Virus record (IMG/VR): IMGVR_UViG_3300001041_000009
Location: 1-64,000 of that record
Length of the DNA: 64,000 bases
From: an uncultured virus (IMG/VR IMGVR_UViG_3300001041_000009)
Taxonomy: Duplodnaviria > Heunggongvirae > Uroviricota > Caudoviricetes
Reading direction: 5' to 3' (one strand)
The position numbers and the translations under genes were made by a program. Positions 296-23,531 of this stretch are shown in pieces. Every line of letters begins with the position of its first letter. Positions within the stretch are counted from its first letter, which is position 1. Below the pieces are notes generated by a model. That model saw only the letters and a list, made by a program, of their open reading frames with translations. It was not told the origin of the DNA and did not search any database.

Positions 296-1054
296 TTAAT
301 CAATTTTAAAATTAATCGATTCTAAATATTCTAAAACTTCTGGGTGTGGTTCTTTAATGCATGTAATACACCCCGGATCAATTTTAACTGCGAATAATTG
401 TACCATACAACTTGGATTTTTAAGAACTCTAATAATATCAGTATCATTTACCAGGGCGGCTAATTGAACTTCTTCAGACGGATTGGTTATTAATTGAATA
501 TTGAATGGATCTAAACCAATTGATAATGCCTGGATGAATAAACCAGGGTCTTTGATATATTGAATAGATGAACTATAACTTCCAATGGCAGTTATTTGAA
601 CCAATATATTAGGATTCTCTATATATTGAATACTATGACCGTTTCTCTTTACAGCAAGCAACTGAATTTCAACACTCGGATTCTTAATGTATTTAATAGT
701 ATTACCACAGCCTGTCACAGCATGTATTTGAACGTTTATATCGGGATTTCTAATATACTGAATATTATCCCAGTTCTGAGATACAGACTCCATCTGGGCT
801 TCAATACATGGCTTTCTAATATGGCTAATAGCCCAATCATCTTTAGTGACAGCAGCTAATTGCACCTCAACACTTGGATCGTTAATGAATGTAATGAATA
901 ATGGATCGATTTGTACCGCCTCCATATCATCCATGGATTCATTATATTCACAATCAGTGACAATATTATCTTCTTCATGGTGTAAAAAGGTTGTTGTTTT
1001 CACAACCTTTTTACACTCATTTGAATCTACAACATTAGTAACGATATTTTTCAT
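296..1054 (-). CDS. DUF4116-like 24-aa repeat protein
   Basis: Tandem repeats of the form I.YI.NP..EVQL.AV..NG..; RBS GGAGG. Confidence 0.8.
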   Translation of the reverse strand: MKNIVTNVVDSNECKKVVKTTTFLHHEEDNIVTDCEYNESMDDMEAVQIDPLFITFINDPSVEVQLAAVTKDDWAISHIRKPCIEAQMESVSQNWDNIQYIRNPDINVQIHAVTGCGNTIKYIKNPSVEIQLLAVKRNGHSIQYIENPNILVQITAIGSYSSSIQYIKDPGLFIQALSIGLDPFNIQLITNPSEEVQLAALVNDTDIIRVLKNPSCMVQLFAVKIDPGCITCIKEPHPEVLEYLESINFKID

Positions 1055-1074
1055 TTTATTATCCTCCTTAATTA

Positions 1075-1478
1075 TTAAAACTCAGTAATAACAACTTTCC
1101 CAGCTTCCATTAGTTGTACTAATTCTTTTGTGGGTGGTAACGTATCACCGTATGGTGATTTTTTAATAACACTAATAGTTATTGGATGTGGGGTTATTAA
1201 AAAATCAGATGGTTTAAACTGATCTTCATAATGTTGTGTACCATCATTTTCCGTTACAACACTTGGATATCTTACTGGTAATCCAAGTGTTGTCAATTCA
1301 TCAATAATAACATCGGTAACTTCTCCGATACCCCCATATCCCATTCCATATCCGGCTGTTCAGTCAATGTACGGATACAATCAAATACACTGTTATAGAT
1401 ATCATCATTCCGTTCAGCCATTCCATCTGTTAATTCAAGTTCTTCTTTAGGACTTTCAATGTTTATATTGATTAACAT
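1075..1478 (-). pseudogene. hypothetical protein split by a 1-nt frameshift in a G5 run
   Basis: ORFs 1293..1478 and 1075..1344 join into MEWDMG-GIGEVTDVIIDEL if one G is added to the run at 1331-1335; RBS GGAGG before the TTG at 1478. Confidence 0.6.
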
Positions 1479-1503
1479 AAAATCCTCCTATTATAATCAT
1501 TAA

Positions 1504-1797
1504 TTACGTTTTTGATACAAATATTAGTTTCAAGTCAAGGACATCTGCAATTCTAAGAATAGTACTTAAACTTGGAGAAACATGTTGATTTTCAATCATT
1601 GAAATATTTTGTTGTCTAAATCCAAGTATTTCAGCCAAATTTCTTTGGGTAAGACTCTTTTCTTTTCGGCTCTTAACTAATTCACATATCAATTCATATT
1701 CGAATTTAATTAATTCGGGACTTTTTAAAGACCCATTGCGATATTTTTGATCGGTAATGTCAACATTACCGATCGTTATGAGTTGAATTCCACTCAA
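1504..1797 (-). CDS. XRE-family helix-turn-helix regulator
   Basis: RKEKSLTQRNLAEILGFRQQNISMIEN...SPSLSTILRIADVLD, a classic HTH_3 pattern. Confidence 0.85.
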   Translation of the reverse strand: MSGIQLITIGNVDITDQKYRNGSLKSPELIKFEYELICELVKSRKEKSLTQRNLAEILGFRQQNISMIENQHVSPSLSTILRIADVLDLKLIFVSKT

Positions 1798-1806
1798 TTT
1801 TAATCA

Positions 1807-2145
1807 TCACTCCTTTATCTCAATATGTATTTTACCTATTGCCATTGCTTCCTCTTTCATTCGTTTACGGACAACACCCTTATTAACCCCTTTATTCTCA
1901 CAGTACATTTTAATGTACATCAGAACTTTAGGATCTGGGTTTTGAATATGGACAATATTCTTAGCACTATGCCGTACAGCGATCATCTGTAATTTCCTAC
2001 CTGGATTCTTGACATATCTGATATTACTACCATTATGTCTTACTGCAGCTACCATTAGTTCATGACTAGGTTTGTTTGCCAATGCAATAGATAAGTCACC
2101 TGCGGCTGCTAATATAGCAGCAATTTTCTTTTGTAATTTAGTCAT
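1807..2145 (-). CDS. short DUF4116-like repeat protein
   Basis: AAVRHNGSNIRYVKNP repeats; start moved to the ATG at 2145 behind RBS GGGAGG. Confidence 0.75.
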   Translation of the reverse strand: MTKLQKKIAAILAAAGDLSIALANKPSHELMVAAVRHNGSNIRYVKNPGRKLQMIAVRHSAKNIVHIQNPDPKVLMYIKMYCENKGVNKGVVRKRMKEEAMAIGKIHIEIKE

Positions 2146-2146
2146 G

Positions 2147-2887
2147 TTAGTTAGCCTCCCCATTCATTAATTTTACCGTATCGATTATATATCGTAATTC
2201 ATTATTAATTGAAACAAGAATATCTCCTTTAATATATAGAACAGCATACGGATTCTGACAAATGGCAGCAAGTTGTATTTCTTTTGAGGGATTATCGATA
2301 TACTGAATAGCAAGTCCATCTTGTCGCACCGCAGCTAATTGAACCTCAGTATCTGGATTTTGAATATGCCTAATATTACAACCATCTTGACCCATACTGT
2401 ATAATTGAACATCTTTGTGTGGATTTATAATATGGGCTATAGTATTTTTATCTTTAGTGATAGCAAGTAACTGAATAGCCATACTAGGATTTTTAATATA
2501 TTTGATTATAAATCCATGCGAATTTATCGCAATCATCTGTAAAATTAAATCTGGATTTTTAATATGCTGAATTGCATAAGCATCTTCTTGAACTGCAAGT
2601 ATCTGTACAGCATATTGTGGGTCATTTATATACCGAATAGAATACCCATTCTGTCTAACTGCAACTATTTGAACATCTTCATCAGGATCTTCGATATACT
2701 GAATAGCAGGCCCACTTTTTCTTACAGCCTCTATTTGCACATCTTTATCGGGGTTTTTAATATACTGAATAATATCACCCGATTGTTTAACGGCAGCTAA
2801 TTGTATTTCTTTACAGGGGTCTTGAATTAACTTAATAGTTAAAGGCTCCTTTGTCACCATCTCTAATTGATGTTTTAATAAGTTCAT
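2147..2887 (-). CDS. DUF4116-like 24-aa repeat protein
   Basis: About nine repeats of IQYIKNPDKDVQ.EAV; start at ATG 2887 behind GAGGAGG. Confidence 0.85.
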   Translation of the reverse strand: MNLLKHQLEMVTKEPLTIKLIQDPCKEIQLAAVKQSGDIIQYIKNPDKDVQIEAVRKSGPAIQYIEDPDEDVQIVAVRQNGYSIRYINDPQYAVQILAVQEDAYAIQHIKNPDLILQMIAINSHGFIIKYIKNPSMAIQLLAITKDKNTIAHIINPHKDVQLYSMGQDGCNIRHIQNPDTEVQLAAVRQDGLAIQYIDNPSKEIQLAAICQNPYAVLYIKGDILVSINNELRYIIDTVKLMNGEAN

Positions 2888-2888
2888 G

Positions 2889-3194
2889 TTAAATTCCTCC
2901 TCTTTCTCGTACATAATCTAATACTTTCACACAAGGATTTTCGATATATTTGATATACTTAATATTTTGCTTTACAGCAAGCATCTGAGCCTTTTTACAA
3001 GGGTTGTCAAACTGTCTAATATATTTACCACCCTTTAACTTAATGAGAGCCACCTGAGCTTTTTTACATGGATTTTCAATACGTTTAATATACTCATCAT
3101 TATTTGATTTAATAATTTCCATTTGTTTCTTCTTAGTGAAATGACCAAATAAAGCATTAAACATTTCCGATGCTATATCTACTTGTTTTTTCAT
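2889..3194 (-). CDS. short DUF4116-like repeat protein
   Basis: YIK.IENPCKKAQ..AV repeats. Confidence 0.75.
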   Translation of the reverse strand: MKKQVDIASEMFNALFGHFTKKKQMEIIKSNNDEYIKRIENPCKKAQVALIKLKGGKYIRQFDNPCKKAQMLAVKQNIKYIKYIENPCVKVLDYVRERGGI

Positions 3195-3236
3195 TAATCA
3201 ATCTTCTCCCTTCTGTTTTATATGTAGTATACTATA

Positions 3237-3246
3237 ATAATATATA
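3237..3246 (-). promoter_or_regulatory. early-type phage promoter motif TATATATTAT (representative copy)
   Basis: Same 10-mer on the minus strand upstream of leftward genes at 3237, 4997, 5685, 9403, 11338, 12106, 12790, 15268, 20551, 25848 and 61619. Confidence 0.7.
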
Positions 3247-3476
3247 ATTTAAAATTATTATGACCTTTTACTTAACTGTTACCATCTTAATTAAATTATA
3301 AATTATTTGAATGGAACATAATAGTAATGAAATAATTTAATTACTTCATAAGGTTATAGATGACAAAAGCTGGACTTCTGCTCTATGATATCACTTTAAT
3401 GAATCCCGACATATTTGGGGGCTTGGTTCTTAAATTGAGGGTTGTTTACATACACTCGTATGAGAAATAGTACAAA

Positions 3477-3514
3477 AAAAATAAAGGAGTACCTTAATTG
3501 GTACTCCTTTATTT
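3477..3514. terminator. bidirectional intrinsic terminator
   Basis: AAAATAAAGGAGTACC-ttaatt-GGTACTCCTTTATTTT hairpin with A/T tails. Confidence 0.8.
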
Positions 3515-3786
3515 TAACGTCTAAAATCCTTTAATATTTCAGACTCTATCTTATGCCAAATAATAGCGTTTGAGTTAATAGATGTTAACCAAGGCTCATC
3601 ATCACCAATAAGTGAATGCACCTCAAAGATCTCAATATCGCATTTGATCGAATTCTCACTATTTGATATTAAGATATACGAGTATTGAATTTCATTCACT
3701 TTGATTACACCCGAATAAATGACAAATCCCATTCCTCTGGAAACTAATCTAGTTGTATGATCTTTATTTGTTAAGTCTTTATCCAT
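3514..3786 (-). CDS. hypothetical protein
   Basis: 90-aa ORF coupled to the upstream gene. Confidence 0.7.
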   Translation of the reverse strand: MDKDLTNKDHTTRLVSRGMGFVIYSGVIKVNEIQYSYILISNSENSIKCDIEIFEVHSLIGDDEPWLTSINSNAIIWHKIESEILKDFRR

Positions 3787-3787
3787 T

Positions 3788-4186
3788 CTAATAAAATCTC
3801 CTTTTCAAAACTCTCACATCTAACATTGATAAATCAACATTTTGGTGTGGGGTTGTAAAACCTTCTTCTTTACGAGTCGACATCCCTTGTTTAATTGAAA
3901 AACATAGAGCATATTCTCCGGCCTTTTCTAACCCTTTAAAGAGATTAGTTGGGGCCTTTACTGCCCCAAAAGACTCAACGATTTCCTTTGTGGTTGGATG
4001 CCCAATATAATGGGAAATTCCAGTTAGATCAGGAATTTCTGAGATGTTAATAGAATTGATTTCATAACAACCATCCAGTGGAATAATAGTTGTTGATAAG
4101 ATTGCAATAGGCATTCCATAAGCATCTTTACATGAACAAAATCCCGTGACATTCTTTTTTCCACAAAACATACAAGTGTTTTCCAT
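3788..4186 (-). CDS. DUF1874 (STIV B116 / AcrIII-1-like) protein, putative cA4 ring nuclease, with an N-terminal Cys-rich extension
   Basis: ILSTTIIPLDGCY...ISHYIGHPTTKEIV...GEYALCF resembles the DUF1874 pattern, including the conserved GH motif; recognised by eye. Confidence 0.55.
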   Translation of the reverse strand: MENTCMFCGKKNVTGFCSCKDAYGMPIAILSTTIIPLDGCYEINSINISEIPDLTGISHYIGHPTTKEIVESFGAVKAPTNLFKGLEKAGEYALCFSIKQGMSTRKEEGFTTPHQNVDLSMLDVRVLKRRFY

Positions 4187-4213
4187 TTTACATTACCTCT
4201 TTCTTTTTAATAC

Positions 4214-4393
4214 TTAACCACATTCACTCCAACCATTTGGGGCGGGACACGTGGCCCAATGTTCGCCTGAACCACATGTACACTTACGTGTAAAATTAGA
4301 TGTGTCTTCACATGTTGGACATTGGGATTTCTCACTCGCACAGTTCCAACACTCGTGATATGAGGAAATCATTGCAAATATTACCTCTTCCAT
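4214..4393 (-). CDS. small Cys-rich protein (59 aa, not in the ORF track)
   Basis: MEEVIFAMISSYHECWNCASEKSQCPTCEDTSNFTRKCTCGSGEHWATCPAPNGWSECG; RBS AAGGAG. Confidence 0.65.
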   Translation of the reverse strand: MEEVIFAMISSYHECWNCASEKSQCPTCEDTSNFTRKCTCGSGEHWATCPAPNGWSECG

Positions 4394-4431
4394 TCTATAT
4401 CACTCCTTTCTTTATTTTAAATTTACCACAT

Positions 4432-4620
4432 TCACTCAGAAATTTCCCCCTCCTCATTATTCCACCATTTCCCAGGTAAGATTTCCTCGAATTCAATTTC
4501 TGTAGGTTTTCCAGCTCTAGACGATTGGCAAAGTAAACGACAGAGGGGGCACTCATTATCTCCAATTAAACTTTTTGTAATATGATTAAATTTACATTTA
4601 AAGAAAATTCTTTTGGGCAT
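4432..4620 (-). CDS. small zinc-ribbon-like protein
   Basis: CxxxH...CPLC motif; RBS CAGGAGG. Confidence 0.65.
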   Translation of the reverse strand: MPKRIFFKCKFNHITKSLIGDNECPLCRLLCQSSRAGKPTEIEFEEILPGKWWNNEEGEISE

Positions 4621-4650
4621 TTTTCAAACCTCCTGTCATAATTTTATGTT

Positions 4651-4953
4651 TTATACAGTATGCTTAAACTTACTGTGATAATACTCGCCAGCAGGGGAAA
4701 TTATAGTTAATTGGCAACCAATATTCCCCCATGAACCACTCCCCACTTCCCAACCTTTAGATTTGATGAACTTAATTGCATCTTGAATAAGATCGAAACA
4801 TGGATGTAATTTAATAGTTTCTGGACTTGGATTAAACGTATCATATGCGGCACATAGATAATCCTTTACTCTTTCACAATCTCCGGCGTATAAATGCTTT
4901 CTTAATTTAGAAATAAAACTCATACTGTTACCGAGTAAATTAAAATCATACAT
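4651..4953 (-). CDS. hypothetical protein
   Basis: 100-aa ORF, RBS AGGGAG, early motif at 4997. Confidence 0.7.
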   Translation of the reverse strand: MYDFNLLGNSMSFISKLRKHLYAGDCERVKDYLCAAYDTFNPSPETIKLHPCFDLIQDAIKFIKSKGWEVGSGSWGNIGCQLTIISPAGEYYHSKFKHTV

Positions 4954-5012
4954 TTTATCAACATCTCCCTTTATATAATTTAGGTATCGTATACGTATAA
5001 TATATACTTGAA

Positions 5013-5645
5013 TTATCTAGCACATAATTTTTGTTGACAATATTCTATTACATCTGGATGAGGATCATAAATATATTTAATTACTCTTTTATCTTTATAT
5101 ACACACAATAACTGTATATCTCTATCAGGATTTTTAATATATTTAATATCAAATATATTATTTTGTATAGCTGCAAATTGCATATTTATATCTGGATTTG
5201 TAATATGTTGTATATTTGAACTATCTCTTTGTACTGCTAATAGTTGAATGTATTTATCCGGTTTATTGATAAATCGTATTGATGCACTATTCTTATTTAT
5301 AGATGCCAATTGGATATCTGTATCAGGATTATCAATATATCTAATAGAGCTACCATCGTTAACAGCAAATAATTGCATTTCTTTAGTTGGTTTATCAATA
5401 TAATATATAGCCCTACCATCATCCTTAACAGCAGTTAATTGAACATCTAAGCTTGGATTATCGATATACTTGATATTAATACCATTGTTAATTACTGCAG
5501 CCATTTGAATTTCATTATCTGGATTTCTAATATAATGAATAGCATACCCATTTTGTTTTACAGCAATTAGTTGCAACTCTTTACTTGGATTATCAATAAA
5601 TAAAATGTTTAAAGGATCTTTTAACACCATCTCTAAATCGGTCAT
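5013..5645 (-). CDS. DUF4116-like 24-aa repeat protein
   Basis: Starts MTDLEMVLKDPLNI like its paralogs; RBS GAGGAG; about eight repeats. Confidence 0.85.
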   Translation of the reverse strand: MTDLEMVLKDPLNILFIDNPSKELQLIAVKQNGYAIHYIRNPDNEIQMAAVINNGINIKYIDNPSLDVQLTAVKDDGRAIYYIDKPTKEMQLFAVNDGSSIRYIDNPDTDIQLASINKNSASIRFINKPDKYIQLLAVQRDSSNIQHITNPDINMQFAAIQNNIFDIKYIKNPDRDIQLLCVYKDKRVIKYIYDPHPDVIEYCQQKLCAR

Positions 5646-5821
5646 TTTAATCTCTCCTCTATTAGTTTTTAATATTATACTATTATAATATATACTTGAT
5701 AGAGGAGAATATACTAATTGATTAAAAATAAATAATACCAAATAGAATTTAAATTCTATTTGGTATTATTTTAATTAATATATTGAGTATCAACTATGAC
5801 GTATAATGCGTCAACTACGAC

Positions 5822-7846
5822 CTACTGAATATCAAATAAACTTACCATTCTATTTGATATATCAAGATTTGCGTAAGGCAACAAGTCAAATTTTCTAAGA
5901 TATACACTAGTCGAACTATTTCCAGTTCCAAGCAAGTAATAATATCCATTGTATGCTTCAATGTTTGGATAGACAGATTGCATCGTTCCTTGAACAACGA
6001 TACTGCTATTACCAAGATTGGAAGGGTCTATTTTTAATATTTCAGTTCTTTGTCTTGCACATGTGCTATGAACCAAATAAATATTAGTACCATCTGTGAA
6101 AAAATATCCTTTTGACCCAGCATCTTGAATCTTAATTTGTTCCACTATCGCCTTAGACGTAAGATTGATTTTAGATAAGAGTATTTTAGTATTGAATGGT
6201 TCTGTGCTATTTGAAATTTGCCTTAATGCGTAATACAGATAACCATCTTTGCAGAAGCAAGAACCCTCCCAGTTAGCTTGCGAATCAACGAATTGAGGTT
6301 CAAGCCAATATTCAAAGGTTAAGAAATCTAGTGTCCTGATCAAAATACTGTTTGGAATCAAACTATTGAACAGTAAGCCACAATAATAATAACCATCAGT
6401 GTGTTTACTCGCCTGTGCCCCAACATTAGGAAAGTGGTCTACACTTGGAAGCGTGAATACATTTAAGCTAATATTATCAGTTGTAAAATCAAAGGTCGCC
6501 GCCTCGTAAGTAAACTGACAAATACCTGCGGCTCCGAAAGTGCTAGTTGCTACATCAAACACTTTACGCAACATATACCATTTGTTGTCACTAAGTTTCG
6601 CGCAAAACGTAACTGTTATATCCCCATCAATGATAATTGGTGTAGCGCCGCCAACACCTGAGATAATTGTAAAACCGCCAACCGCATCCCCATACTTACC
6701 AACATCATACCTACCAAGTAATGTCCAACTATCCAAATCAATTATTTCCAAAATAGAATATGCGTCTGTATACGTTGGGCTATCTCCTGTTCCAACATCA
6801 TTAGTAAGCATACAGCAATAGGCTAAACCATTTACTGCATCAATCGCAAGTTTGGAATCATGGGAAAAATTAGTCGTCATTTTATAGCGGACATCAAATG
6901 TATCCTTATCAAATTTCACACTGTTTAGATAAGTTGTCATTTCATCGACAACCGATTGTGTACCTACATTCCATCTATTAGCAGGGTCTTGGTATGTTAA
7001 AGACTTGTCTGAAAATGTAACGCAATTTGTTTCAACATACTTTTCGGTTGCAAGTCTGTCATAAATGTACTTATACACAGACAAATTTGCTAATATATTG
7101 AATTCTAAGTATTTACAGTTTTCTGGTATAGTAATTTCAACATCCCATACACCGTCACCATAACATTCCCCCCCAATGAAGATAGAATCTTCATCCAAGT
7201 AAATGACATGGTACAAATCAGCCCTGCTACCTGTAACCTGAATATGGAATTTATCTCCCGCCTTAACTTCGATAGGTTCTGTGTAATAGTAGTATAATAG
7301 GCTGGTTAAAAGAATTAATGTATGTCCAAGGTCGCTATTCATAGCAGACCATCTTGCACCGCTTATTGCCGGTACAGTTTGTAATACATAATCACCCGTT
7401 AAGTGTGTCCAATCTTTTTCACCACCAATATTTGTCTTTAATTTACCAATTTGCCCTCTGACTGCTTCCCCTGCACTTCCATAGGTTATACCATCGGCCC
7501 CAATTTTCAGATCTATTAATTCTGCACTACCACTCGCTACACCATAAACAAGTAATACATAATCACCCGCTACTGCTGTATATCCTGTCGCTACTGGTGT
7601 AACGCTTGCAAGATTAATTTGTCCTGTAGTTGCTCCACTCTCTACTATTAATAATACTCCAGTTATCCCTGCTGTAGATTTTTCGTAAAAAGAAGCATTG
7701 GTGACCGCGACTAAATTATTAATCCTTGCCTTCTCAATATCTAATGCTATTTGCGGTGCTTTATCAGCTAACTGTGCCGTAGTTTCTGCCTTATACGCAG
7801 CAAGATCTGCTTTTACAGTACCCGGTAATTTAAAATAACCTTCCAT
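5822..7846 (-). CDS. putative tail-associated protein with a C-terminal beta-propeller/glycoside hydrolase-like region
   Basis: N-terminal ELIDLKIGADGITYGSAGEAVRGQI motif seen in phage minor structural proteins; beta-rich C-terminal half; downstream of a late-type promoter. Confidence 0.5.
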   Translation of the reverse strand: MEGYFKLPGTVKADLAAYKAETTAQLADKAPQIALDIEKARINNLVAVTNASFYEKSTAGITGVLLIVESGATTGQINLASVTPVATGYTAVAGDYVLLVYGVASGSAELIDLKIGADGITYGSAGEAVRGQIGKLKTNIGGEKDWTHLTGDYVLQTVPAISGARWSAMNSDLGHTLILLTSLLYYYYTEPIEVKAGDKFHIQVTGSRADLYHVIYLDEDSIFIGGECYGDGVWDVEITIPENCKYLEFNILANLSVYKYIYDRLATEKYVETNCVTFSDKSLTYQDPANRWNVGTQSVVDEMTTYLNSVKFDKDTFDVRYKMTTNFSHDSKLAIDAVNGLAYCCMLTNDVGTGDSPTYTDAYSILEIIDLDSWTLLGRYDVGKYGDAVGGFTIISGVGGATPIIIDGDITVTFCAKLSDNKWYMLRKVFDVATSTFGAAGICQFTYEAATFDFTTDNISLNVFTLPSVDHFPNVGAQASKHTDGYYYCGLLFNSLIPNSILIRTLDFLTFEYWLEPQFVDSQANWEGSCFCKDGYLYYALRQISNSTEPFNTKILLSKINLTSKAIVEQIKIQDAGSKGYFFTDGTNIYLVHSTCARQRTEILKIDPSNLGNSSIVVQGTMQSVYPNIEAYNGYYYLLGTGNSSTSVYLRKFDLLPYANLDISNRMVSLFDIQ

Positions 7847-8317
7847 TTATCTCACCCCCACAATTTGAACAATTGGGGTTCCTGTAGAAATAACATGGAT
7901 TGTCGTTCCCTGCATAGATATACCATATCCTGTTTCAGCAGGTAATAAAGTACTTGTTGTACCATTAACAGATGCAACCCCATCGACCTCATAATAAGCA
8001 TCACCTGGTCCAACATTAAGAATATCAAATCTTTTACATACACCTGAAAATGTAAATAATGTATCAGTATTAGCTACTAATGTATATCGTTTAACTTCAT
8101 TAACAGTATTGCCTGCAATAAATGCATTAATAGTAGTTTGTATACCTTTCATAACATTATAAATACTAGATAACCAACCTCTTGAACCAGTACCACCAGA
8201 TTCCTGAGTTACTCCAGTAGCATCAGTTCCATCTAATACAGCTTGTGCTGACCAAGTACCATCACCATTATCTTTTACCTTAAGGTTAACACCACCATAA
8301 TTAACGAATTTATCCAT
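7847..8317 (-). CDS. putative virion structural protein
   Basis: 156-aa Gly/Thr-rich ORF, RBS AAGGAG, AACA-N6-TA at 8346-8357. Confidence 0.6.
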   Translation of the reverse strand: MDKFVNYGGVNLKVKDNGDGTWSAQAVLDGTDATGVTQESGGTGSRGWLSSIYNVMKGIQTTINAFIAGNTVNEVKRYTLVANTDTLFTFSGVCKRFDILNVGPGDAYYEVDGVASVNGTTSTLLPAETGYGISMQGTTIHVISTGTPIVQIVGVR

Positions 8318-8413
8318 AGCTATTCAACTCCTTTATATTTGTTTTTATTACTATGTTTAATTGTATTAATACAAAAAAATAAAGGATACCTCAATACCCT
8401 TTATTATTTTTAA

Positions 8414-9382
8414 TTAATCCGCGTCATATTCAATTTTAGCTATATTGAATTTCTCTCTAAGTTCACTAACATATTGATCAGCTTCAGCATTTGTTAGTAT
8501 ATCATTTTTGGATAACAGAGAATTAACTTTACCATTACCATTGAAGACAATCACATAAATAGTTTTATTTCTACAGTTAACTAGTACACTAAGTTTTTCT
8601 TTAATATATATACCCGAGGAATCAATTTGTTTAGCTAGAAGCCTCTTAGTATAATCTATAACCTTTCTACTAGGATCATAGATATATCGAATTGCATCAG
8701 GGCATATATCAACAGCAGCTAATTGAATTTCCTCACTAGGATTAGCAATGCACCTAATGAGACTATAATCTAGATTTAATGCTTTAAGAATCACTGTTTT
8801 AAAAGGTTTCTTAATATGCATTATAACTATAGGATTTTTTTCAATAGCTGCTAGTTGGACTCGCTCCGATGGATTGAATAAATATTTAATTACTGTACCA
8901 TTTTCCCTTACTGCTGTTAATTGTACATCTTCAGATGGATTATTGATAAACTGTATCATCTTCCCATCTTGTTTAAGAGCAGTTATCTGTACTACCTCTA
9001 GCGGATTGTGAATATATTGTAACGCTTTAGCCTTAATAGAGTTCTTAACTGCTGTCATTTGTAATAATTCGGACGGATGCTCAATAAAGCATATCGCCTG
9101 TCCATTTTGTTTGATAGCAGTCAGTTGAACTTTTTCAGACGGATCTTTAATAAACTGCAATAACATTCCATCTTGTTTTACGGCAGCCAATTGGACTTTT
9201 TCTGTGGTATTATGCATAAATTTAATGTCCCAGGCACAGTTTAAAACTGATTCTAGTTGTGCTTGTTCACTTTGTTTCTCCAATGTAATCGTTTGATTAA
9301 TAATGGAGTTGATCATATTTAATTTTTCTAAAGGAATATCTTTCCGGGTATAGCCTTCCATTTTGTTTGTTAGCTCCTTCAT
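8414..9382 (-). CDS. DUF4116-like repeat protein with a unique C-terminal domain
   Basis: About eight 24-aa repeats followed by about 75 non-repeat residues; start may be the ATG at 9361. Confidence 0.8.
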   Translation of the reverse strand: MKELTNKMEGYTRKDIPLEKLNMINSIINQTITLEKQSEQAQLESVLNCAWDIKFMHNTTEKVQLAAVKQDGMLLQFIKDPSEKVQLTAIKQNGQAICFIEHPSELLQMTAVKNSIKAKALQYIHNPLEVVQITALKQDGKMIQFINNPSEDVQLTAVRENGTVIKYLFNPSERVQLAAIEKNPIVIMHIKKPFKTVILKALNLDYSLIRCIANPSEEIQLAAVDICPDAIRYIYDPSRKVIDYTKRLLAKQIDSSGIYIKEKLSVLVNCRNKTIYVIVFNGNGKVNSLLSKNDILTNAEADQYVSELREKFNIAKIEYDAD

Positions 9383-9465
9383 TTTTTATGTATTACATTA
9401 TTATAATATATAAACAAAAAAAGTAAGAATACGAATTATCGTATTCTTACTTTTAGTTAATTAAG

Positions 9466-10179
9466 TTATCTGAAAACTATAGAGTGTTTTAACTGTTGTT
9501 TTACATATTCCATTACCTCAGCATCAGGATTGATAATATATCTAATACAATGTATATCAGTCTTAACAGCAGCCATTTGCACTTCTTTACTAGGATGGGC
9601 AAATCTTTTAATAGTAGAACAATCCTTTTGTACAGCTAATATGGCTACCTCCATACTGAATACTTTAATGAACTCCATAGCTCGTGCATCCTGTTTTACG
9701 GCAGCCATTTGGATATTTTTAGCAGGTTGTCTAATATACTTAATAGCACAACCACTTTGCTCTACAGCAGTAAGTTGAAGTTCTTTACTTGGATCTGAAA
9801 TATATCGAATGGCGTAACCATTCTGTTGAACAGCAATAGTTTGTAACTGAATAGAAGGATTTTTAATGAACTTAATAGAAGTCCCTTCTTCAAGTACAGC
9901 CGCCAATTGAACCTCTTCACATGGGTCTGGTATGTAACGAATAGCTACTCCATTCTGCTCAACTGCAGCTATCTGAACTTCTTTACATGGATTATTGATA
10001 TAACGAATAAGTCTTCCATCTGTCCGTACGACTTTTAATTGGAGATTAACACTTGGATTTTCAATGAACTGGATAACATAACCTGCTGTGGTTACGGCAG
10101 CTAGTTTAACCTCTTCACTCGGATCTTTAATGGTTAAGATGTTTAAAGGATCTTTGATTACTAATAATGTATTATTCAT
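9466..10179 (-). CDS. DUF4116-like 24-aa repeat protein
   Basis: About nine repeats; RBS AGGAGG. Confidence 0.85.
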   Translation of the reverse strand: MNNTLLVIKDPLNILTIKDPSEEVKLAAVTTAGYVIQFIENPSVNLQLKVVRTDGRLIRYINNPCKEVQIAAVEQNGVAIRYIPDPCEEVQLAAVLEEGTSIKFIKNPSIQLQTIAVQQNGYAIRYISDPSKELQLTAVEQSGCAIKYIRQPAKNIQMAAVKQDARAMEFIKVFSMEVAILAVQKDCSTIKRFAHPSKEVQMAAVKTDIHCIRYIINPDAEVMEYVKQQLKHSIVFR

Positions 10180-10211
10180 CTTTAAATTCCTCCTAAATAT
10201 TTATTTTGAAT

Positions 10212-10733
10212 TTAATATCCCCTCTTTTTTAATTCACTTCTAGCGTATTCTACTACACTAGGATCAGGTTTATCAATAACACATAACGCGAAAGGACAAT
10301 TTTTAATTGCCGCTAATTGTACATCAATACTAGGTGTTTTAATAAATCTGATTACCATACCGAAACTTTCCACAGCAGTTAATTGAACCTCTTCACTTGG
10401 ATTTCCAATACTTCTAATGATATCTGGATTTAATCGCACCATTTGTAAATCTATTGATTCTTCCATAATACCATCATAAATATCTATTTCCATATCTAAA
10501 TCAATGTATTCATCACTTAATATAATAGGACATTTTGCTGTGGATAAAAGCTCTTCAAATTCTTGCTTGGTAATAATAGTAGATGGTCTATATGATTTAT
10601 GTATAGAACTAGGTCTACTTTTATGAATATAGTAAGACTCACTCCTTTCAATTTTCGTGGCGACCAAATCTGCCAGTTCTACAACCCTATATGTTTTGAA
10701 AAATGTTATGAAACGAAATTTATTTCTATCCAT
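10212..10733 (-). CDS. protein with a unique N-terminus and C-terminal DUF4116-like repeats
   Basis: Repeats only in the last ~80 aa. Confidence 0.75.
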   Translation of the reverse strand: MDRNKFRFITFFKTYRVVELADLVATKIERSESYYIHKSRPSSIHKSYRPSTIITKQEFEELLSTAKCPIILSDEYIDLDMEIDIYDGIMEESIDLQMVRLNPDIIRSIGNPSEEVQLTAVESFGMVIRFIKTPSIDVQLAAIKNCPFALCVIDKPDPSVVEYARSELKKRGY

Positions 10734-10747
10734 TTATAAACACCCCT

Positions 10748-11299
10748 TTAATTTATTTCAGAATGATAATCCAATTTCTTTAATTCATGCCTAACATATT
10801 CTGATATGGCAGGATCTGGATTATCAATCATATTAATAGTTGAAATCTGACTCTTTACAGCAATCAACTGAATACTTTTATCAGGATCTTTGATGTACTG
10901 TATGGCTTCGGGATTTTGTCTTACAGCAAGTAATTGAACTGATCTGATTGGATCTTTGATATACTTAATAACAAGGCCATTTTCCTTAACTGCAATAAGT
11001 TGAACTTTTATGTGTGGATTGGTAATAAATTGGATAGCACATTCGTTTTGTCGTACAGCTACAATTTGAACATCCTTATCCGGGTTTTGGATATACTTAA
11101 TTACATTTCCATCTCTTCGGACCACAGTAAGTTGAACTTCTTTATCTGGATTCTTAATATACTGGATAATATAACCAGACTCCCGTGTTGCGGCTAATTG
11201 CAAATTCCTACTTGGATTTTTAACAAGTTTAATGTATAAAGGATTCTCCTTTATTAAAGATAATGTTGATCGTATCAATTGATTAGTCTCAGATGTCAT
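10748..11299 (-). CDS. DUF4116-like 24-aa repeat protein
   Basis: About six repeats. Confidence 0.85.
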   Translation of the reverse strand: MTSETNQLIRSTLSLIKENPLYIKLVKNPSRNLQLAATRESGYIIQYIKNPDKEVQLTVVRRDGNVIKYIQNPDKDVQIVAVRQNECAIQFITNPHIKVQLIAVKENGLVIKYIKDPIRSVQLLAVRQNPEAIQYIKDPDKSIQLIAVKSQISTINMIDNPDPAISEYVRHELKKLDYHSEIN

Positions 11300-11421
11300 C
11301 TCAATTCCCCCTAAATAATTTATGTATTTACTGATCTATAATATATAGTTGAATAGAATATTAAATATTACAAAAAAAATAAAGAATACGAATTAATGTA
11401 TTCTTTATTTAATGATACTAA

Positions 11422-11895
11422 TTATTTATAGTTAAACGTCCCATCAAATAGCCAACTATTTTGTTGTATAATTACCATCTGAACATCATCGTCTGGGTCT
11501 TCAATAATTTGGATAGACAATTCTTTGTTTTTCACAAACCCTAGTAATATATCCCTATTGGGATTTTTAACATGATTCATACTATATCCATTAGAGCTCA
11601 TATGTATTAAATCCAAATCTTTATGTGGATCTATAATATGATAAAAATTTGTATCGACATCCATTTCAAATATGAAGAGCTGAGTCTTATTGCTACCATC
11701 CTTAATAAACCCCACAAAGAATTTAGATCTATGGTCATACCATAGTGCTGCTAATTTTATATCACTATCAATATTGTCAGTAAATTGAATACTGACAGCA
11801 TATTTTTGAATAGCCGCCTTTTGTAAAGTAATATCCGGCTTATCAACTAATAGGATATTTATTGGGTGTATTTTTATAAGCTCCAGATCAGTCAT
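11422..11895 (-). CDS. degenerate DUF4116-like repeat protein
   Basis: MTDLELIKIHPINI N-terminus; decayed repeats. Confidence 0.7.
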   Translation of the reverse strand: MTDLELIKIHPINILLVDKPDITLQKAAIQKYAVSIQFTDNIDSDIKLAALWYDHRSKFFVGFIKDGSNKTQLFIFEMDVDTNFYHIIDPHKDLDLIHMSSNGYSMNHVKNPNRDILLGFVKNKELSIQIIEDPDDDVQMVIIQQNSWLFDGTFNYK

Positions 11896-12074
11896 TTAAC
11901 ATCACCCCATTGTTGCATAAATGTATAATCTCGTGGATCTAATTCATCACCGACCTGGACACTAAAATGGCCACATTCAATATTAATATCTTTTAGATAT
12001 ATGAATATTCCTGGGTTTTTAATACGTAGCTGGCACAAACAATCGTCAATTATTAATTTCACATCATCGTCCAC
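11892..12074 (-). CDS. hypothetical protein
   Basis: 60-aa ORF behind RBS AAGGGG and the early motif at 12106; overlaps the next start by ATGA. Confidence 0.6.
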   Translation of the reverse strand: MDDDVKLIIDDCLCQLRIKNPGIFIYLKDINIECGHFSVQVGDELDPRDYTFMQQWGDVK

Positions 12075-12120
12075 TATATTACATCCCCTTTCTATATACT
12101 AATATAATATATACTTAAAA

Positions 12121-12923
12121 AAATAAAGAATACGAATTATCATATTCTTTATTTCATAGATTACAAATTCTTTAATAGTTCTTGTTTCACGTACTCTAAT
12201 ACATCAGGATGGGGATTATTGATATATCTGATTGAGTTGATATCATGCTCAACGGAATACAATTGAACTTTTGGATGTGGATCTTTGATATTTTTAATGG
12301 TATTTGTAAAATATTCTCGTCGAAATTTCATAATCTCTTTATATTCGTCTTCAAAAGGGGATTTGAATTGATAGCTATCTTGTTTGAATGCCATTATTTG
12401 TATATGGGGTTCTGGATTTTCAATACACTGAATAGCCCGGCCCCCTCCACCATGTATAATAGCCGCTCTTTGAACAGGCATATTTGGATCTTTAATGAAG
12501 CGAATACTCATAGAATTACTATATACAGCAATTAATTGCATTTCAAAATCAGGATCTGCAATAAACTGAATTGCATCACCGTTATTTCTAACAGCACACT
12601 CTTGGACTTCACGGTTAGGGTTGATGATAAATTGTAACAATAACCCGTCTTTATTTACTGTAGCTAACTGCACATCAACATCTGGATTCTCAATAAGTAT
12701 AATGTTTAAAGGATTCTTCTGCACCATTTCTAAATCTGTTAATTTTTCCATTAATAAATTCCTCCTAAATTTTATTTCTTTACTAATATATAATATATAG
12801 TTGAATAGATTATTAGATTTAATAAAAAATAAAGAGTATGAATTATCATATTCTTTATTTCATAGATTACAAATTCTTTAATAGTTCTTGTTTTACATAC
12901 TCTAATACATCAGGATGGGGATT
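12121..12923. repeat. ~97-bp near-identical direct repeat (12121-12217 and 12827-12923): gene 3' end plus terminator
   Basis: ATTATCATATTCTTTATTTCATAGATTACAAATTCTTTAATAGTTCTTG... occurs twice, 706 bp apart. Confidence 0.85.
12161..12751 (-). CDS. DUF4116-like 24-aa repeat protein
   Basis: MEKLTDLEMVQKNPLNI...HPDVLEYVKQELLKNL. Confidence 0.85.
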   Translation of the reverse strand: MEKLTDLEMVQKNPLNIILIENPDVDVQLATVNKDGLLLQFIINPNREVQECAVRNNGDAIQFIADPDFEMQLIAVYSNSMSIRFIKDPNMPVQRAAIIHGGGGRAIQCIENPEPHIQIMAFKQDSYQFKSPFEDEYKEIMKFRREYFTNTIKNIKDPHPKVQLYSVEHDINSIRYINNPHPDVLEYVKQELLKNL

Positions 12924-13586
12924 GAATAAATGTGTAATAAAATTAATACTCTGTTTTACAGCGATCATTTGAATCTCAACTGATGGATTTTCAATACATC
13001 GAATGACATTGCCATCTTGTTGAACTGCAATAAGTTTTAATGCATCTGAAGGTTCCCCAAAGCAACTGATGGCAAATCCATTTTGTTGTAGAGCCATAAC
13101 GCAAATGTCATCATCAGGATGAACGATCCATCGAATGGCATAACCTGATTCTTGTACTGCGGCTATTTGTACATCCTTATCTGGGTTTTTGATATATTCA
13201 ATAACATCCCCATCATTACTCACCGCAGCCAACTGGACCTTTTTACTTGGATCTTTAATGAATTGAAGGGCGTATGCATTTTCTTTGACCGCAAGTAATT
13301 GTAATTCTTCACTCGGGTCTTTAATATATTGGATAGCAAATCCGTCAATACTTACTGCTGTTGATTTCACGTCCATGTCTGGATTTTTAATATATTTGAT
13401 TATATCGTCACTATCAAATTTACTACTAGATAATGCTTTTATTTGCACATCTTTATCAGGACTCTCAATAAACTGAATATTACTACCCTCATTTGTAACG
13501 ACTACCATTTGAATCTCCTTAGTTGGGTTTTTAATAAGTAAAATGTTTAAAGGATTCTTCTGCACCATTTCTAAATCAGTCATCAA
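12867..13586 (-). CDS. DUF4116-like 24-aa repeat protein
   Basis: About nine repeats; C-terminus identical to that of 12161..12751. Confidence 0.85.
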   Translation of the reverse strand: MMTDLEMVQKNPLNILLIKNPTKEIQMVVVTNEGSNIQFIESPDKDVQIKALSSSKFDSDDIIKYIKNPDMDVKSTAVSIDGFAIQYIKDPSEELQLLAVKENAYALQFIKDPSKKVQLAAVSNDGDVIEYIKNPDKDVQIAAVQESGYAIRWIVHPDDDICVMALQQNGFAISCFGEPSDALKLIAVQQDGNVIRCIENPSVEIQMIAVKQSINFITHLFNPHPDVLEYVKQELLKNL

Positions 13587-14458
13587 TTAACACTTCCTTT
13601 ATCGTCATTTAATTTATCACGAAGTTTTTGTTTTACATATTCTAATACTTCTGAGTGCGGAGTATTAATATATTTAATATTATCAATATCAATTTCAACA
13701 GCCTTCAGTTGAATACACATATCTGGATTTTCAATATATCTAATAAAACTAACATTCATGGAAATTACAACTTCTTGTATCTCTATACTTGGATCTTTAA
13801 TAAATTGAATAGTTGGCGCATCTGATATAACTGCAGCTTCCTGGATATCCTCATCGGGGTTTTTGATATATTGAATGTTACGCCCATAATATACCACAGC
13901 GATTAATTGGACCTCTTTAGTCGGTTCTTTAATAAATTTAATAGAAATTGGCCTCTTTGTAACAGCAACTAACTGAACCTCCTCACTGGGATTGTCTATA
14001 TATTTGATATTGCGACTTTTTCGTTTAACTGCCTCTAGTTGAATTGTTACATCGGGATTATTGATATATTTAAAATACTTCCCGTTAGGGGAATGATTCA
14101 ATACTTGATATTGTGCAGATAATGCTGGATTTTTTATTAAACTGATATAGGTAGGATTAATTTTGACTAGGATTTGTTGAATTTCCTCATGTGGATCTGA
14201 TATAAATTTAATATAAGCCCAAGATTGATTTATAGCGATTAACTGGACTTCAATATCTGGGTTCATAATAAATTTAATATTACGACCAGTTTCAATAACA
14301 GCAGCGCGTTGAACATCCTTATCTGGGTTTTTAATAAACCGGATATATTTTCCATTATGATTGACTGCAATTAATTGAACCTCTTTACTAGGATTCTCAA
14401 TAAACATGATATTTAAAGGATTTTTCTGCATCATTTCTAAATCTGTTAATTTTTCCAT
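13583..14458 (-). CDS. DUF4116-like 24-aa repeat protein
   Basis: About eleven repeats; N-terminus and RBS nearly identical to those of 12161..12751. Confidence 0.85.
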   Translation of the reverse strand: MEKLTDLEMMQKNPLNIMFIENPSKEVQLIAVNHNGKYIRFIKNPDKDVQRAAVIETGRNIKFIMNPDIEVQLIAINQSWAYIKFISDPHEEIQQILVKINPTYISLIKNPALSAQYQVLNHSPNGKYFKYINNPDVTIQLEAVKRKSRNIKYIDNPSEEVQLVAVTKRPISIKFIKEPTKEVQLIAVVYYGRNIQYIKNPDEDIQEAAVISDAPTIQFIKDPSIEIQEVVISMNVSFIRYIENPDMCIQLKAVEIDIDNIKYINTPHSEVLEYVKQKLRDKLNDDKGSVN

Positions 14459-14491
14459 TAATAAATTCCTCCTAATATTTTATTCTTTTAT

Positions 14492-15229
14492 TTAATGTTT
14501 CTTTAGATCAGTCACTGTAGATACGTCTAATATGAGATTGCAACTAATATGTTTATTATGATTCACATTATTAGCATTTGTAATTCTTTCCCTTTCTTTC
14601 ATTAATTCTAATAATACATATTCTGTAACTTCAGAGTCTGGATTATCAATTAATGTAAGCGATCTAAGATTTTGTTTTACAGCTATTAACTGTAAATCTT
14701 TCGATGGGTTTTTAATAAATTGGATAGCATCACCATCTTTTTCCAATGCTAATATTTGTACATCAATATCAGGGTTATTGATATATTTAATAGCACATCC
14801 ACTTTCATTAACAGCTATTAATTGCAGACCTTTATCCGGACTAGCTATAAACTTAATAGCATATCCATTTTGTTTAAGCGCTACACTTTGTATAATTCTA
14901 GTTGGTTCTTTAATATACTGAAGTGCAAGACCATGGGCTGAAACTGCAGCGCATTGGATCGGTTTACTTGGATCTATAATTTGTTCAATAGCAGTAGGAT
15001 CATACTTTACTGCTAATAACTGCACTTCAGTATCGGGATTTTTAATATACTTAAGAGCTTCACAATTTTGTCTTACAGCAGCTAATTTGATTTCATTATC
15101 TGGATCATCAATGTATCTGATCATAAGGCCATTTTTTTTGACAGTTGCTAATTGAACTTCTTTACTGGGAGGATTCTGGAGAATTAAAATATTTAGGTGA
15201 TTCATCTTCACTATTTCTAAATCTGTCAT
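14492..15229 (-). CDS. DUF4116-like 24-aa repeat protein
   Basis: About eight repeats; early motif at 15268. Confidence 0.85.
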   Translation of the reverse strand: MTDLEIVKMNHLNILILQNPPSKEVQLATVKKNGLMIRYIDDPDNEIKLAAVRQNCEALKYIKNPDTEVQLLAVKYDPTAIEQIIDPSKPIQCAAVSAHGLALQYIKEPTRIIQSVALKQNGYAIKFIASPDKGLQLIAVNESGCAIKYINNPDIDVQILALEKDGDAIQFIKNPSKDLQLIAVKQNLRSLTLIDNPDSEVTEYVLLELMKERERITNANNVNHNKHISCNLILDVSTVTDLKKH

Positions 15230-15328
15230 TAATAAATTCCTCCTAATTTTTATTTCTTTACTAGTATATAATATATAGTTGTAAACATTATTACTTTCTA
15301 CTCTACAATCATTATTTTACGATTTATC

Positions 15329-23483: not shown

Positions 23484-23494
23484 ACTTTAAAAAA

Positions 23495-23531
23495 AATAAT
23501 AGACTAGCAATTAAGCTAGTCTATTATTTTT
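23495..23531. terminator. bidirectional terminator between convergent genes
   Basis: AAAATAATAGACTAGC-aattaa-GCTAGTCTATTATTTT. Confidence 0.8.

Follow-up and report, generated by a model that had tools for sequence, protein, structure and literature searches.

The first 15 kb of the virus contig IMGVR_UViG_3300001041_000009 (IMG/VR; a single contig of 118,479 bp) contain an array of 14 minus-strand genes, between positions 296 and 15229, whose products are built from a short repeat related to the DUF4116 family. We analysed the first 64 kb of this contig (31% G+C), hereafter called the window. At slightly better than even confidence, we consider the array to be an early repertoire of stand-alone, enzyme-less binding proteins that would act on host macromolecules and would have been expanded by cassette recombination. 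As the gene next to the array (15375..18056, plus strand) encodes an RNA polymerase beta-like subunit that matches the AR9/PBS1 group best, the contig is assigned on sequence grounds to an AR9/PBS1-like jumbo phage, of which it is a fragment; the best matches of the product are the Bacillus phages Internexus, Goe21, AR9 and PBS1 (30% identity, E ~1e-72; 205 records matched; AR9 at 30% identity, E 4e-72). The array is real, and the picture drawn in an earlier note made from the letters of this DNA is broadly right except for the repeat period, the decoy role being conjectural.

The repeat array and its early-type signals

The 14 genes sum to 8,931 of 14,934 bp, in line with the earlier count of about 14 repeat genes over about 9 kb of the first 15 kb. 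A profile made from 84 clean units and run on the open reading frames of the contig recovered a fifteenth repeat gene outside the window (contig 98963-99601) and gave no match beyond these 15; the genome as a whole thus carries 15 copies or more, and all 15 frames are open. The repeat unit measures 22 residues by spacing in the proteins and 66 nt by spacing in the DNA, which rules out the period of 24 residues given before. Over the 84 clean units the scaffold consists of G1, I4, I7, N/D9, P10, V14, Q15, L16, A18 and V19, and this is the fixed I/I/NP/VQL/AV/G core that had been described. The genes hold 2-11 units, the maximum being as previously stated and the minimum below the three expected. 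The N-terminal cap TDLE was found in six of the 14 genes, with looser variants in several others, and the C-terminal cap P-x-P/S/A/V-x-V/I-x-E/M/D-Y in 11 of the 14; the caps are indeed shared but neither is present in every gene. Paralogs are 22-49% identical (59 pairs with at least 80 aligned residues).

At the left end of the contig, 296..1054 encodes 252 residues with eight units, the C-cap and a 41-residue N-terminal extension (DUF4116, 33.8 bits). Inside the extension lies a hairpin with a 15-bp stem (~980-1016, minus strand; z -7.3), flanked by A- and T-runs and directly ahead of cap-like sequence, which may once have been an intergenic terminator that the gene has since taken in, or may act as an attenuator. 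The short gene 1807..2145 (112 residues, two units, basic C-terminal tail; phrog_17056, E 4e-9) is followed by 2147..2887 (246 residues, nine units, no standard C-cap; 69.8 bits), by the short basic gene 2889..3194 (101 residues, three units; phrog_5925, E 3e-13) and by 5013..5645 (210 residues, nine units, both caps; 53.8 bits). The remaining nine genes begin with 8414..9382 (322 residues, nine units and extra parts of ~45 residues at the N terminus and ~70 at the C terminus; 50.1 bits) and 9466..10179 (237 residues, ten units; 68.4 bits). In 10212..10733 (173 residues) an unrelated N-terminal part of ~90 residues precedes two to three units and the C-cap (18.2 bits, below the cut-off; phrog_5925, E 5e-14). 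Then come 10748..11299 (183 residues, six units; 51.9 bits), the degenerate 11422..11895 (157 residues, about four recognisable units, N-cap and no C-cap; phrog_17056, E 6e-13), 12161..12751 (196 residues, seven units and a 23-residue insertion; 30.2 bits), the acidic 12867..13583 (238 residues, nine units, isoelectric point (pI) 4.6; 55.5 bits), 13583..14458 (291 residues, 11 units; 31.7 bits) and 14492..15229 (245 residues, eight units, C-terminal tail; 62.7 bits).

The Pfam model of DUF4116 (PF13475) scores above its cut-off of 24.9 bits in ten of the 14 genes; the other four fall below it or are unmatched, yet each has a match to PHROG 5925/17056 with an E value of 4e-9 or less. All eight genes submitted to PHROGs, these four included, match phrog_5925 and 17056. 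The hidden Markov model search thus agrees with the earlier label of DUF4116-like, as do the viral DUF4116 models that align with the predicted structure. The fusion of some genes to unrelated domains was overstated: sizeable extra parts are confined to 8414-9382 (C-terminal) and 10212-10733 (N-terminal), four repeat genes bear tails of 30-45 residues, and none of the extra parts matches a family. For the C-terminal part of 8414 no homologs were found at 42-137 residues, the length covered by that search.

The window holds 16 copies of the motif TATATATTAT, where 100 shuffles gave 3.7 +- 1.8. The motif matches the early promoter consensus of AR9, AAATATATATTAT-(6N)-G, which according to the accessible part of PMC5312081 was mapped by differential RNA sequencing (dRNA-seq) and is used by the virion polymerase with no need for protein synthesis. 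By the criterion TATATATTAT-6N-purine, 24 of the 26 copies on the contig have a purine at the predicted start; the letter is G in four and A in four of the eight intergenic array copies. Nine of the 26 copies, one of them intragenic, fall within the initial 15.3 kb, which make up 13% of the contig (p 0.004). The eight intergenic copies stand directly before six of the 14 repeat genes and head the units containing the other eight, and the fifteenth gene is also preceded by the motif. Seven terminator-like hairpins (z -3.8 to -8.1) were found in the array, and sigma-70-like sites are not enriched (79 against 92.8 expected). From the well-matched promoter motif we infer that the array genes are expressed early, as the earlier note had proposed. 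These signals also agree with its further claim that many genes have their own early motif, ribosome-binding site and terminator: six genes are directly preceded by the motif, every unit with a repeat gene is headed by it, and hairpins are present.

Several of these signals form compact minus-strand cassettes. An early promoter (15268-15277, with G 6 nt later) and a ribosome-binding site, together at 15218..15293 and belonging to DNA repeat family D17, head three repeat genes. A terminator hairpin, early promoter and ribosome-binding site make up the cassettes at 12740..12860 (promoter 12790-12799; z -4.9) and 11288..11410 (promoter 11338-11347; families D17 and D18), and a hairpin and early promoter those at 12095..12154 (promoter 12104-12113; z -6.0) and 9394..9454 (family D18; z -7.4). 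By motif search, further early promoters were placed at 5685..5694 ahead of 5013-5645, at 4997..5006 heading the small non-repeat genes 4651-3514, and at 3237..3246 heading 2889-3194 and the genes below it. A terminator-like hairpin lies at 3478..3515 (z -7.1), and hairpin folding and contig ends mark a perfect 42-nt palindrome at 5730..5771 (minus strand) that is terminator-like and an assembly break point.

Fold, variation and spread of the repeats

As the earlier note had called the proteins solenoid-like, one of the 14, the product of 9466-10179, was modelled with AlphaFold2 using the 14 paralogs as alignment, and an alpha-solenoid was obtained at high confidence (predicted local distance difference test (pLDDT) 97, predicted template modelling score (pTM) 0.85). 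Each modelled unit consists of a 6-residue helix (positions 1-6), an I-x-N-P loop and a 10-residue helix (12-21), and a long C-terminal helix closes the solenoid. DUF4116 has likewise been modelled as an alpha-solenoid without a good template, according to the accessible part of PMC8078820. No solved structure in the PDB matched by fold at E<=0.001, which is not evidence of a new fold. The best Foldseek probability in the PDB (0.60) was for 1LRV, a leucine-rich repeat variant that is also a small two-helix solenoid; with TM 0.30, root-mean-square deviation (rmsd) 10, E 0.6 and Z 4.9 the arrangement is similar but a relationship is not demonstrated. In a wide structure search the armadillo, PPR and ankyrin solenoids matched no more than moderately (best Z 7.3, rmsd 11), and matches to designed TIM barrels, HEAT, Arm and similar models were set aside as repeat-composition noise. 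In a viral structure library 34 models matched at E<=0.001, nearly all labelled DUF4116 or unnamed, among them giant-virus DUF4116 proteins, marseillevirus F-box fusions (TMq 0.87, rmsd 1.9), a kinase fusion and Atu_ph07 proteins.

Core positions 4, 7, 10, 15 and 18 differ in 5-30% of unit pairs, and the synonymous difference is 0.51 against 0.55 at saturation. Such conservation of the core beside almost saturated synonymous change means that the copies are old and that purifying selection acts on the scaffold; this saturation also makes the per-position ratio of nonsynonymous to synonymous substitution rates (dN/dS) among window paralogs uninformative. Position 2 is the most diverse in the array units (entropy 3.85 bits, lowest mean BLOSUM of -0.93), position 5 is Q/K/R and position 6 is aromatic. 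Across 1,207 units, taken from 249 of the 273 homologs fetched by a pattern that fixed positions 4, 7, 9, 10 and 14, positions 2 and 5 vary more than any other. Helix geometry places the variation at 2, and at 5 in the relatives, probably on one outer face of the short helix, and the variable positions described earlier are thus few and expected to share a face. In seven recently amplified homolog genes, chosen by a mean unit identity of at least 72%, the proportion of nonsynonymous differences (pN) is 0.48 at 2+5, 0.30 at 20-22, 0.16 at the exposed 12+13 and 0.035 in the core, with a synonymous proportion (pS) of 0.49; a looser cut (nine genes) leaves the ranking unchanged.

The family is large, with 13,324 clusters at E<=0.001 and 6,287 at E<=1e-10, and its atlas clusters are mostly viral. 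DUF4116 (PF13475) and PHROGs 5925, 17056, 25923 and 35305 resemble the array proteins in profile, in the alpha-solenoid and in the structural matches to viral models. The unit differs, being 22 residues here against the ~24-25 implied by the 49-position Pfam model, although the shorter subtype still passes the profile; this form is widespread, with 1,207 spacings of 22 against eight of 24 in the fetched homologs. Multi-copy sets occur in the Salicola phage SCTP-2 (25 profile matches, ~23 reading frames), the Bacillus phage AgentSmith (nine, 6) and the Agrobacterium phage Atu_ph07 (five, 4), and in G001 and G002 (12 repeat matches each). The three named phages share with the array the same repeat in many, partly clustered copies; they differ in having fewer and shorter clusters (2-4 genes) and other caps or fused domains, their genes are annotated as hypothetical proteins, and the TATATATTAT motif was not seen ahead of them. 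Only eight of 50,697 phage records matched by tblastn, and AR9, PBS1 and related Staphylococcus phages were not among them. The copy-number comparison across relatives that the earlier note had suggested thus yields multi-copy sets but no orthologous array. Expansions are already present in sequenced phages (SCTP-2) and the family is catalogued; in the literature searched (open full text, with PMC7824862 covered by term search of the main article) no description of phage DUF4116-repeat arrays was found.

The array proteins stand alone with caps, whereas most homologs carry another domain: 95 of 120 listed homologs have an extra part of at least 60 residues. The commonest partner (39 of the 120) is an unnamed domain with the motif G-x-G-T-x-W-C, which has no PDB match and gives a weak lead to PcfJ (score 0.79; one Pfam PcfJ match among 146). 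In L011, L015, L021 and L025 (G002) and in L001 (SCTP-2), paralogs carry this domain at the N terminus followed by young homogeneous repeats. The recognised partners in 146 further long homologs are PLD-like in four and, once each, U-box, kinase, PARP, AAA, WGR, PcfJ, DUF7666, LRR, FNIP, DUF3945 and DUF5661. As homologs are mostly fused to varied partner domains, the repeat appears to behave as a targeting module; the protein-directed partners are more varied, and nucleic-acid-directed ones are present. Four homologs (P0135, P0181, P0200 and P0210) combine 22-residue repeats with a PLD-like domain and match type II restriction, DrmC and ZacB models weakly; they are possible sensor-nuclease defence proteins, and the genomic context obtained for the PLD fusions is one unrelated locus. 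Large eukaryotic viruses, with which the earlier note had compared the array, do use the same fold with F-box, U-box and kinase domains in their F-box, ankyrin and leucine-rich repeat expansions; the array proteins differ in lacking an F-box or any other effector domain, and the Skp1-cullin-F-box (SCF) pathway does not exist in a bacterial host.

Within the array, unit interiors average 52-54% DNA identity. At the gene ends, by contrast, stretches of 54, 44, 36 and 26 nt match letter for letter, running across the stop or start codon, the terminator and the ribosome-binding site. The last 100 nt of 12161-12751 and 12867-13583 are 96% identical, the first 99 nt of 12161-12751 and 13583-14458 are 92% identical, and the terminator-promoter spacers are near-identical while gene interiors diverge. 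Amplification of each gene from one unit was rejected, since the nearest unit lies in the same gene for only eight of 84 units, about as by chance; mean within-gene unit identity is just 1.5 points higher (p 0.001). In a relative, L009, whose flanking genes are 67-70% DNA-identical to those of this phage, a cassette comprising an early motif (G at +1), a ribosome-binding site, a capped repeat gene, a hairpin and the next early motif has its place between the orthologs of 62626-64563 and contig 65178-65564; the gene that this phage holds at that site is not a repeat gene. The repeat cassettes are likely mobile, judging from this one case. A search of viral contigs by RNA polymerase neighbour and promoter pattern found no close relative with an orthologous array, and a metagenome scan for array relatives returned only L009 and L008, a second assembly of the same phage.

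This arrangement resembles the PeSL (promoter early stem-loop) cassettes that, according to the accessible part of PMC2839356, shuffle genes in T4-type phages. Both have repeated intergenic units of terminator, early promoter and ribosome-binding site (here D17 and D18) flanking genes of unassigned function in a variable region; the L009 cassette, at a site where this phage lacks it, may be a further parallel. They differ in that the promoter here is for the phage virion RNA polymerase and not sigma-70, the homology reaches into the coding caps, and the cargo is one paralog family.

Assembly support and neighbouring genes

Four groundwater DNA runs of one study contain at least 97% of the words sampled from the contig, and three of the four may themselves be its source. 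Contigs of runs X1, X3 and X4 span the repeat genes with zero differing letters in the long pieces listed (two of these three runs may be the source of this DNA), and end at the shared repeat-gene ends. L008 is identical over the nine repeat genes at 8414-15229 and differs from the window at ten of 17,777 bases, none of them inside repeat genes. An assembly artefact as the origin of the array is ruled out by the contigs of the three runs and the identical L008 assembly. No single contig bridges the palindrome at 5730-5771; both sides share similar depth, gene family and motif.

Some local features of the assemblies were also observed. At 6508-6709 the window has nine clustered differences from both the contigs of the three runs and L008, five of which alter residues 380, 382, 440, 441 and 447 of a 674-residue protein. 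Past window position 5807, L008 runs into unrelated tail, holin-like and amidase-like genes of higher G+C (L008 17778-20714). Either the join is chimeric, or this phage and a temperate phage have a gene end in common, which could hint at the host. At 4174-4211, 38 nt surrounding a ribosome-binding site form a stretch that has loose ends and fourfold depth in X1 and X3, and therefore recurs elsewhere in the sample or in a missing part of the genome.

The array region also holds genes outside the repeat family. The gene 3788..4186 (minus strand), which lies in an early unit, is weakly AcrIII-1/DUF1874-like (PF08960, E 2.4e-4, 21.6 bits against a cut-off of 26; PDB 2j6b, E 0.23) and has G-H and R-x-x-E-G at what we take to be the places of the AcrIII-1 catalytic motifs; such a gene amid the early units of the array would fit a counter-defence region, weakly, the match being below the Pfam cut-off. 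A two-gene block of higher G+C (5822..8317, minus strand; 674 and 156 residues) has no early motif and is preceded by AACA-6N-TA at 8346-8357. It is probably a late insert or structural, although this late promoter motif is not enriched (59 against 83 expected) and therefore marks the block as late weakly. The block has a paralogous pair elsewhere on the contig (7847-8317 against contig 77213-79802; 75% DNA identity over 211 nt). Beyond the array, the RNA polymerase gene region at 18056-23500 is split into pieces, between which lie reading frames and repeated segments; as in AR9, these are probably introns that carry homing endonucleases. Three near-identical reading frames of 380-410 residues (window 44881-46113; contig 80805-82037 and 117335-118477) look like transposon-encoded nucleases, and a related remnant lies at contig 64643-65026, where L009 holds its repeat cassette.

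Possible function of the array proteins

If the array is a repertoire of binders, the virion RNA polymerase would transcribe its genes in the first minutes of infection, and each protein would show a different surface formed by positions 2, 5 and 6 (with 20-22) of successive repeats. Each would have its own binding partner among the macromolecules of the infected cell, most likely a host protein, which it would block or sequester without an enzyme domain. The repertoire would grow and be reshuffled by recombination between shared caps and terminator-promoter spacers, as PeSL cassettes are. Several results weigh against this reading. The window proteins tested give no PADLOC or NCBIfam match above trivial scores; for the role as inhibitors or decoys of host defence proteins that the earlier note had considered possible, this leaves the weakly AcrIII-1-like neighbour. 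The commonest recognised partner of the homologs, the PLD-like domain (four of 146; probably a nuclease), together with the one WGR, fits nucleic-acid binding equally. In the phage's own units, positions 8, 12, 13, 17, 20 and 21 vary about as much as position 5, and the variation is spread more widely than in the relatives; the other exposed positions (8, 12, 13, 20 and 21) have caught up in these older units. The per-position comparison that the earlier note had called for finds a constrained core and does not show positive selection, as pN/pS at 2+5 in the seven young homolog genes is 0.99 (resampled 0.73-1.82), not above 1, and relaxed constraint explains the variability at 2+5 as well. No variants are listed in the repeat genes from the three runs, whose contigs drop rare variants.

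We see a small chance that the repeats instead read single-stranded nucleic acid, one base per repeat as in PUF and PPR proteins, with position 2 stacking, position 5 reading an edge and each gene having its own target sequence. The residues would suit this, being Y/H/R/F/N and others at position 2 and Q/K/R/E at position 5, with a limited set of pairs (YQ, YR, YE, LQ and YK commonest) and a basic and aromatic face at 2, 5, 6 and 8 (net charge +0.43 at 5 and +0.32 at 8; 79% aromatic at 6), and the motifs resemble what we take to be the PUF recognition motif; PLD-nuclease-like and WGR fusions are found among homologs and PPR chains among the top structural matches. Those PPR matches are weak (Z 5.8-6.3, rmsd 13-19), the PPR/PUF matches are no better than the armadillo and ankyrin ones (rmsd 11-19), and Pfam gives no PUF or PPR match for the array proteins. 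Overall, nine of the 14 proteins have an acidic pI (4.6-6.2), no covariation of positions 2 and 5 is seen in the top 15 pairs, the F-box and U-box fusions suggest protein substrates, and position 1 is mostly Gly where PUF presumably carries a base-reading residue. A stronger form, to which we give a slightly smaller chance still, is that the 22-residue repeat is a modular code in which positions 2 and 5 would read one base or residue of an extended ligand, giving programmable early RNA or single-stranded DNA binders in jumbo phages; if true, it would be a phage counterpart of PPR, PUF or TALE in a smaller, unrelated scaffold, reshuffled as promoter-gene-terminator cassettes.

It is unlikely, too, that the proteins serve the phage itself and not against the host, be it as adaptors or scaffolds of its early machinery (RNA polymerases, replication or compartment proteins) or as weapons in conflict with co-infecting phages. 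Solenoids commonly act as adaptors, the array adjoins the RNA polymerase subunit gene, and AgentSmith has three copies directly before a tubulin-like gene; a core adaptor would predict neither the varying copy number and position between phages, L009 included, nor the absence of AR9, PBS1 and related Staphylococcus phages from the tblastn matches. We give a low probability to a largely neutral gene accordion, in which terminator-promoter cassettes ease duplication and most copies are redundant or decaying. In its favour, unequal recombination is made easier by the shared ends, some of the genes (1807, 2889, 11422) are short or degenerate, and the pN/pS of ~1 in young homologs leaves positive selection not shown; against it, all frames are open, paralogs are strongly diverged, and units ~52% identical in DNA with near-saturated synonymous sites and a kept core need long purifying selection on each copy. 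That the proteins are late structural or virion-packaged is very improbable. In the accessible part of the Atu_ph07 virion proteome (PMC6102473, Table S5) the fused homolog gp394 is a virion protein (18 peptides), but the three stand-alone copies gp219, gp387 and gp554 were not detected, a weak indication from one proteome that agrees with the non-structural role proposed earlier, and early-type motifs head all units of the array. Fused forms can thus travel in the particle, and stand-alone forms are probably made in the cell.

Jumbo phages devote much of their early transcription to genes without assigned function. Here one family accounts for 9 kb with a confident fold, a defined variable surface, its own expression cassettes and 15 natural variants, which makes the question of its targets tractable. 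The family has neither a solved structure nor a known ligand. Finding one target would allow its members to be annotated in phages and giant viruses alike, might bring new anti-defence proteins to light, and would provide a small natural scaffold for binders.

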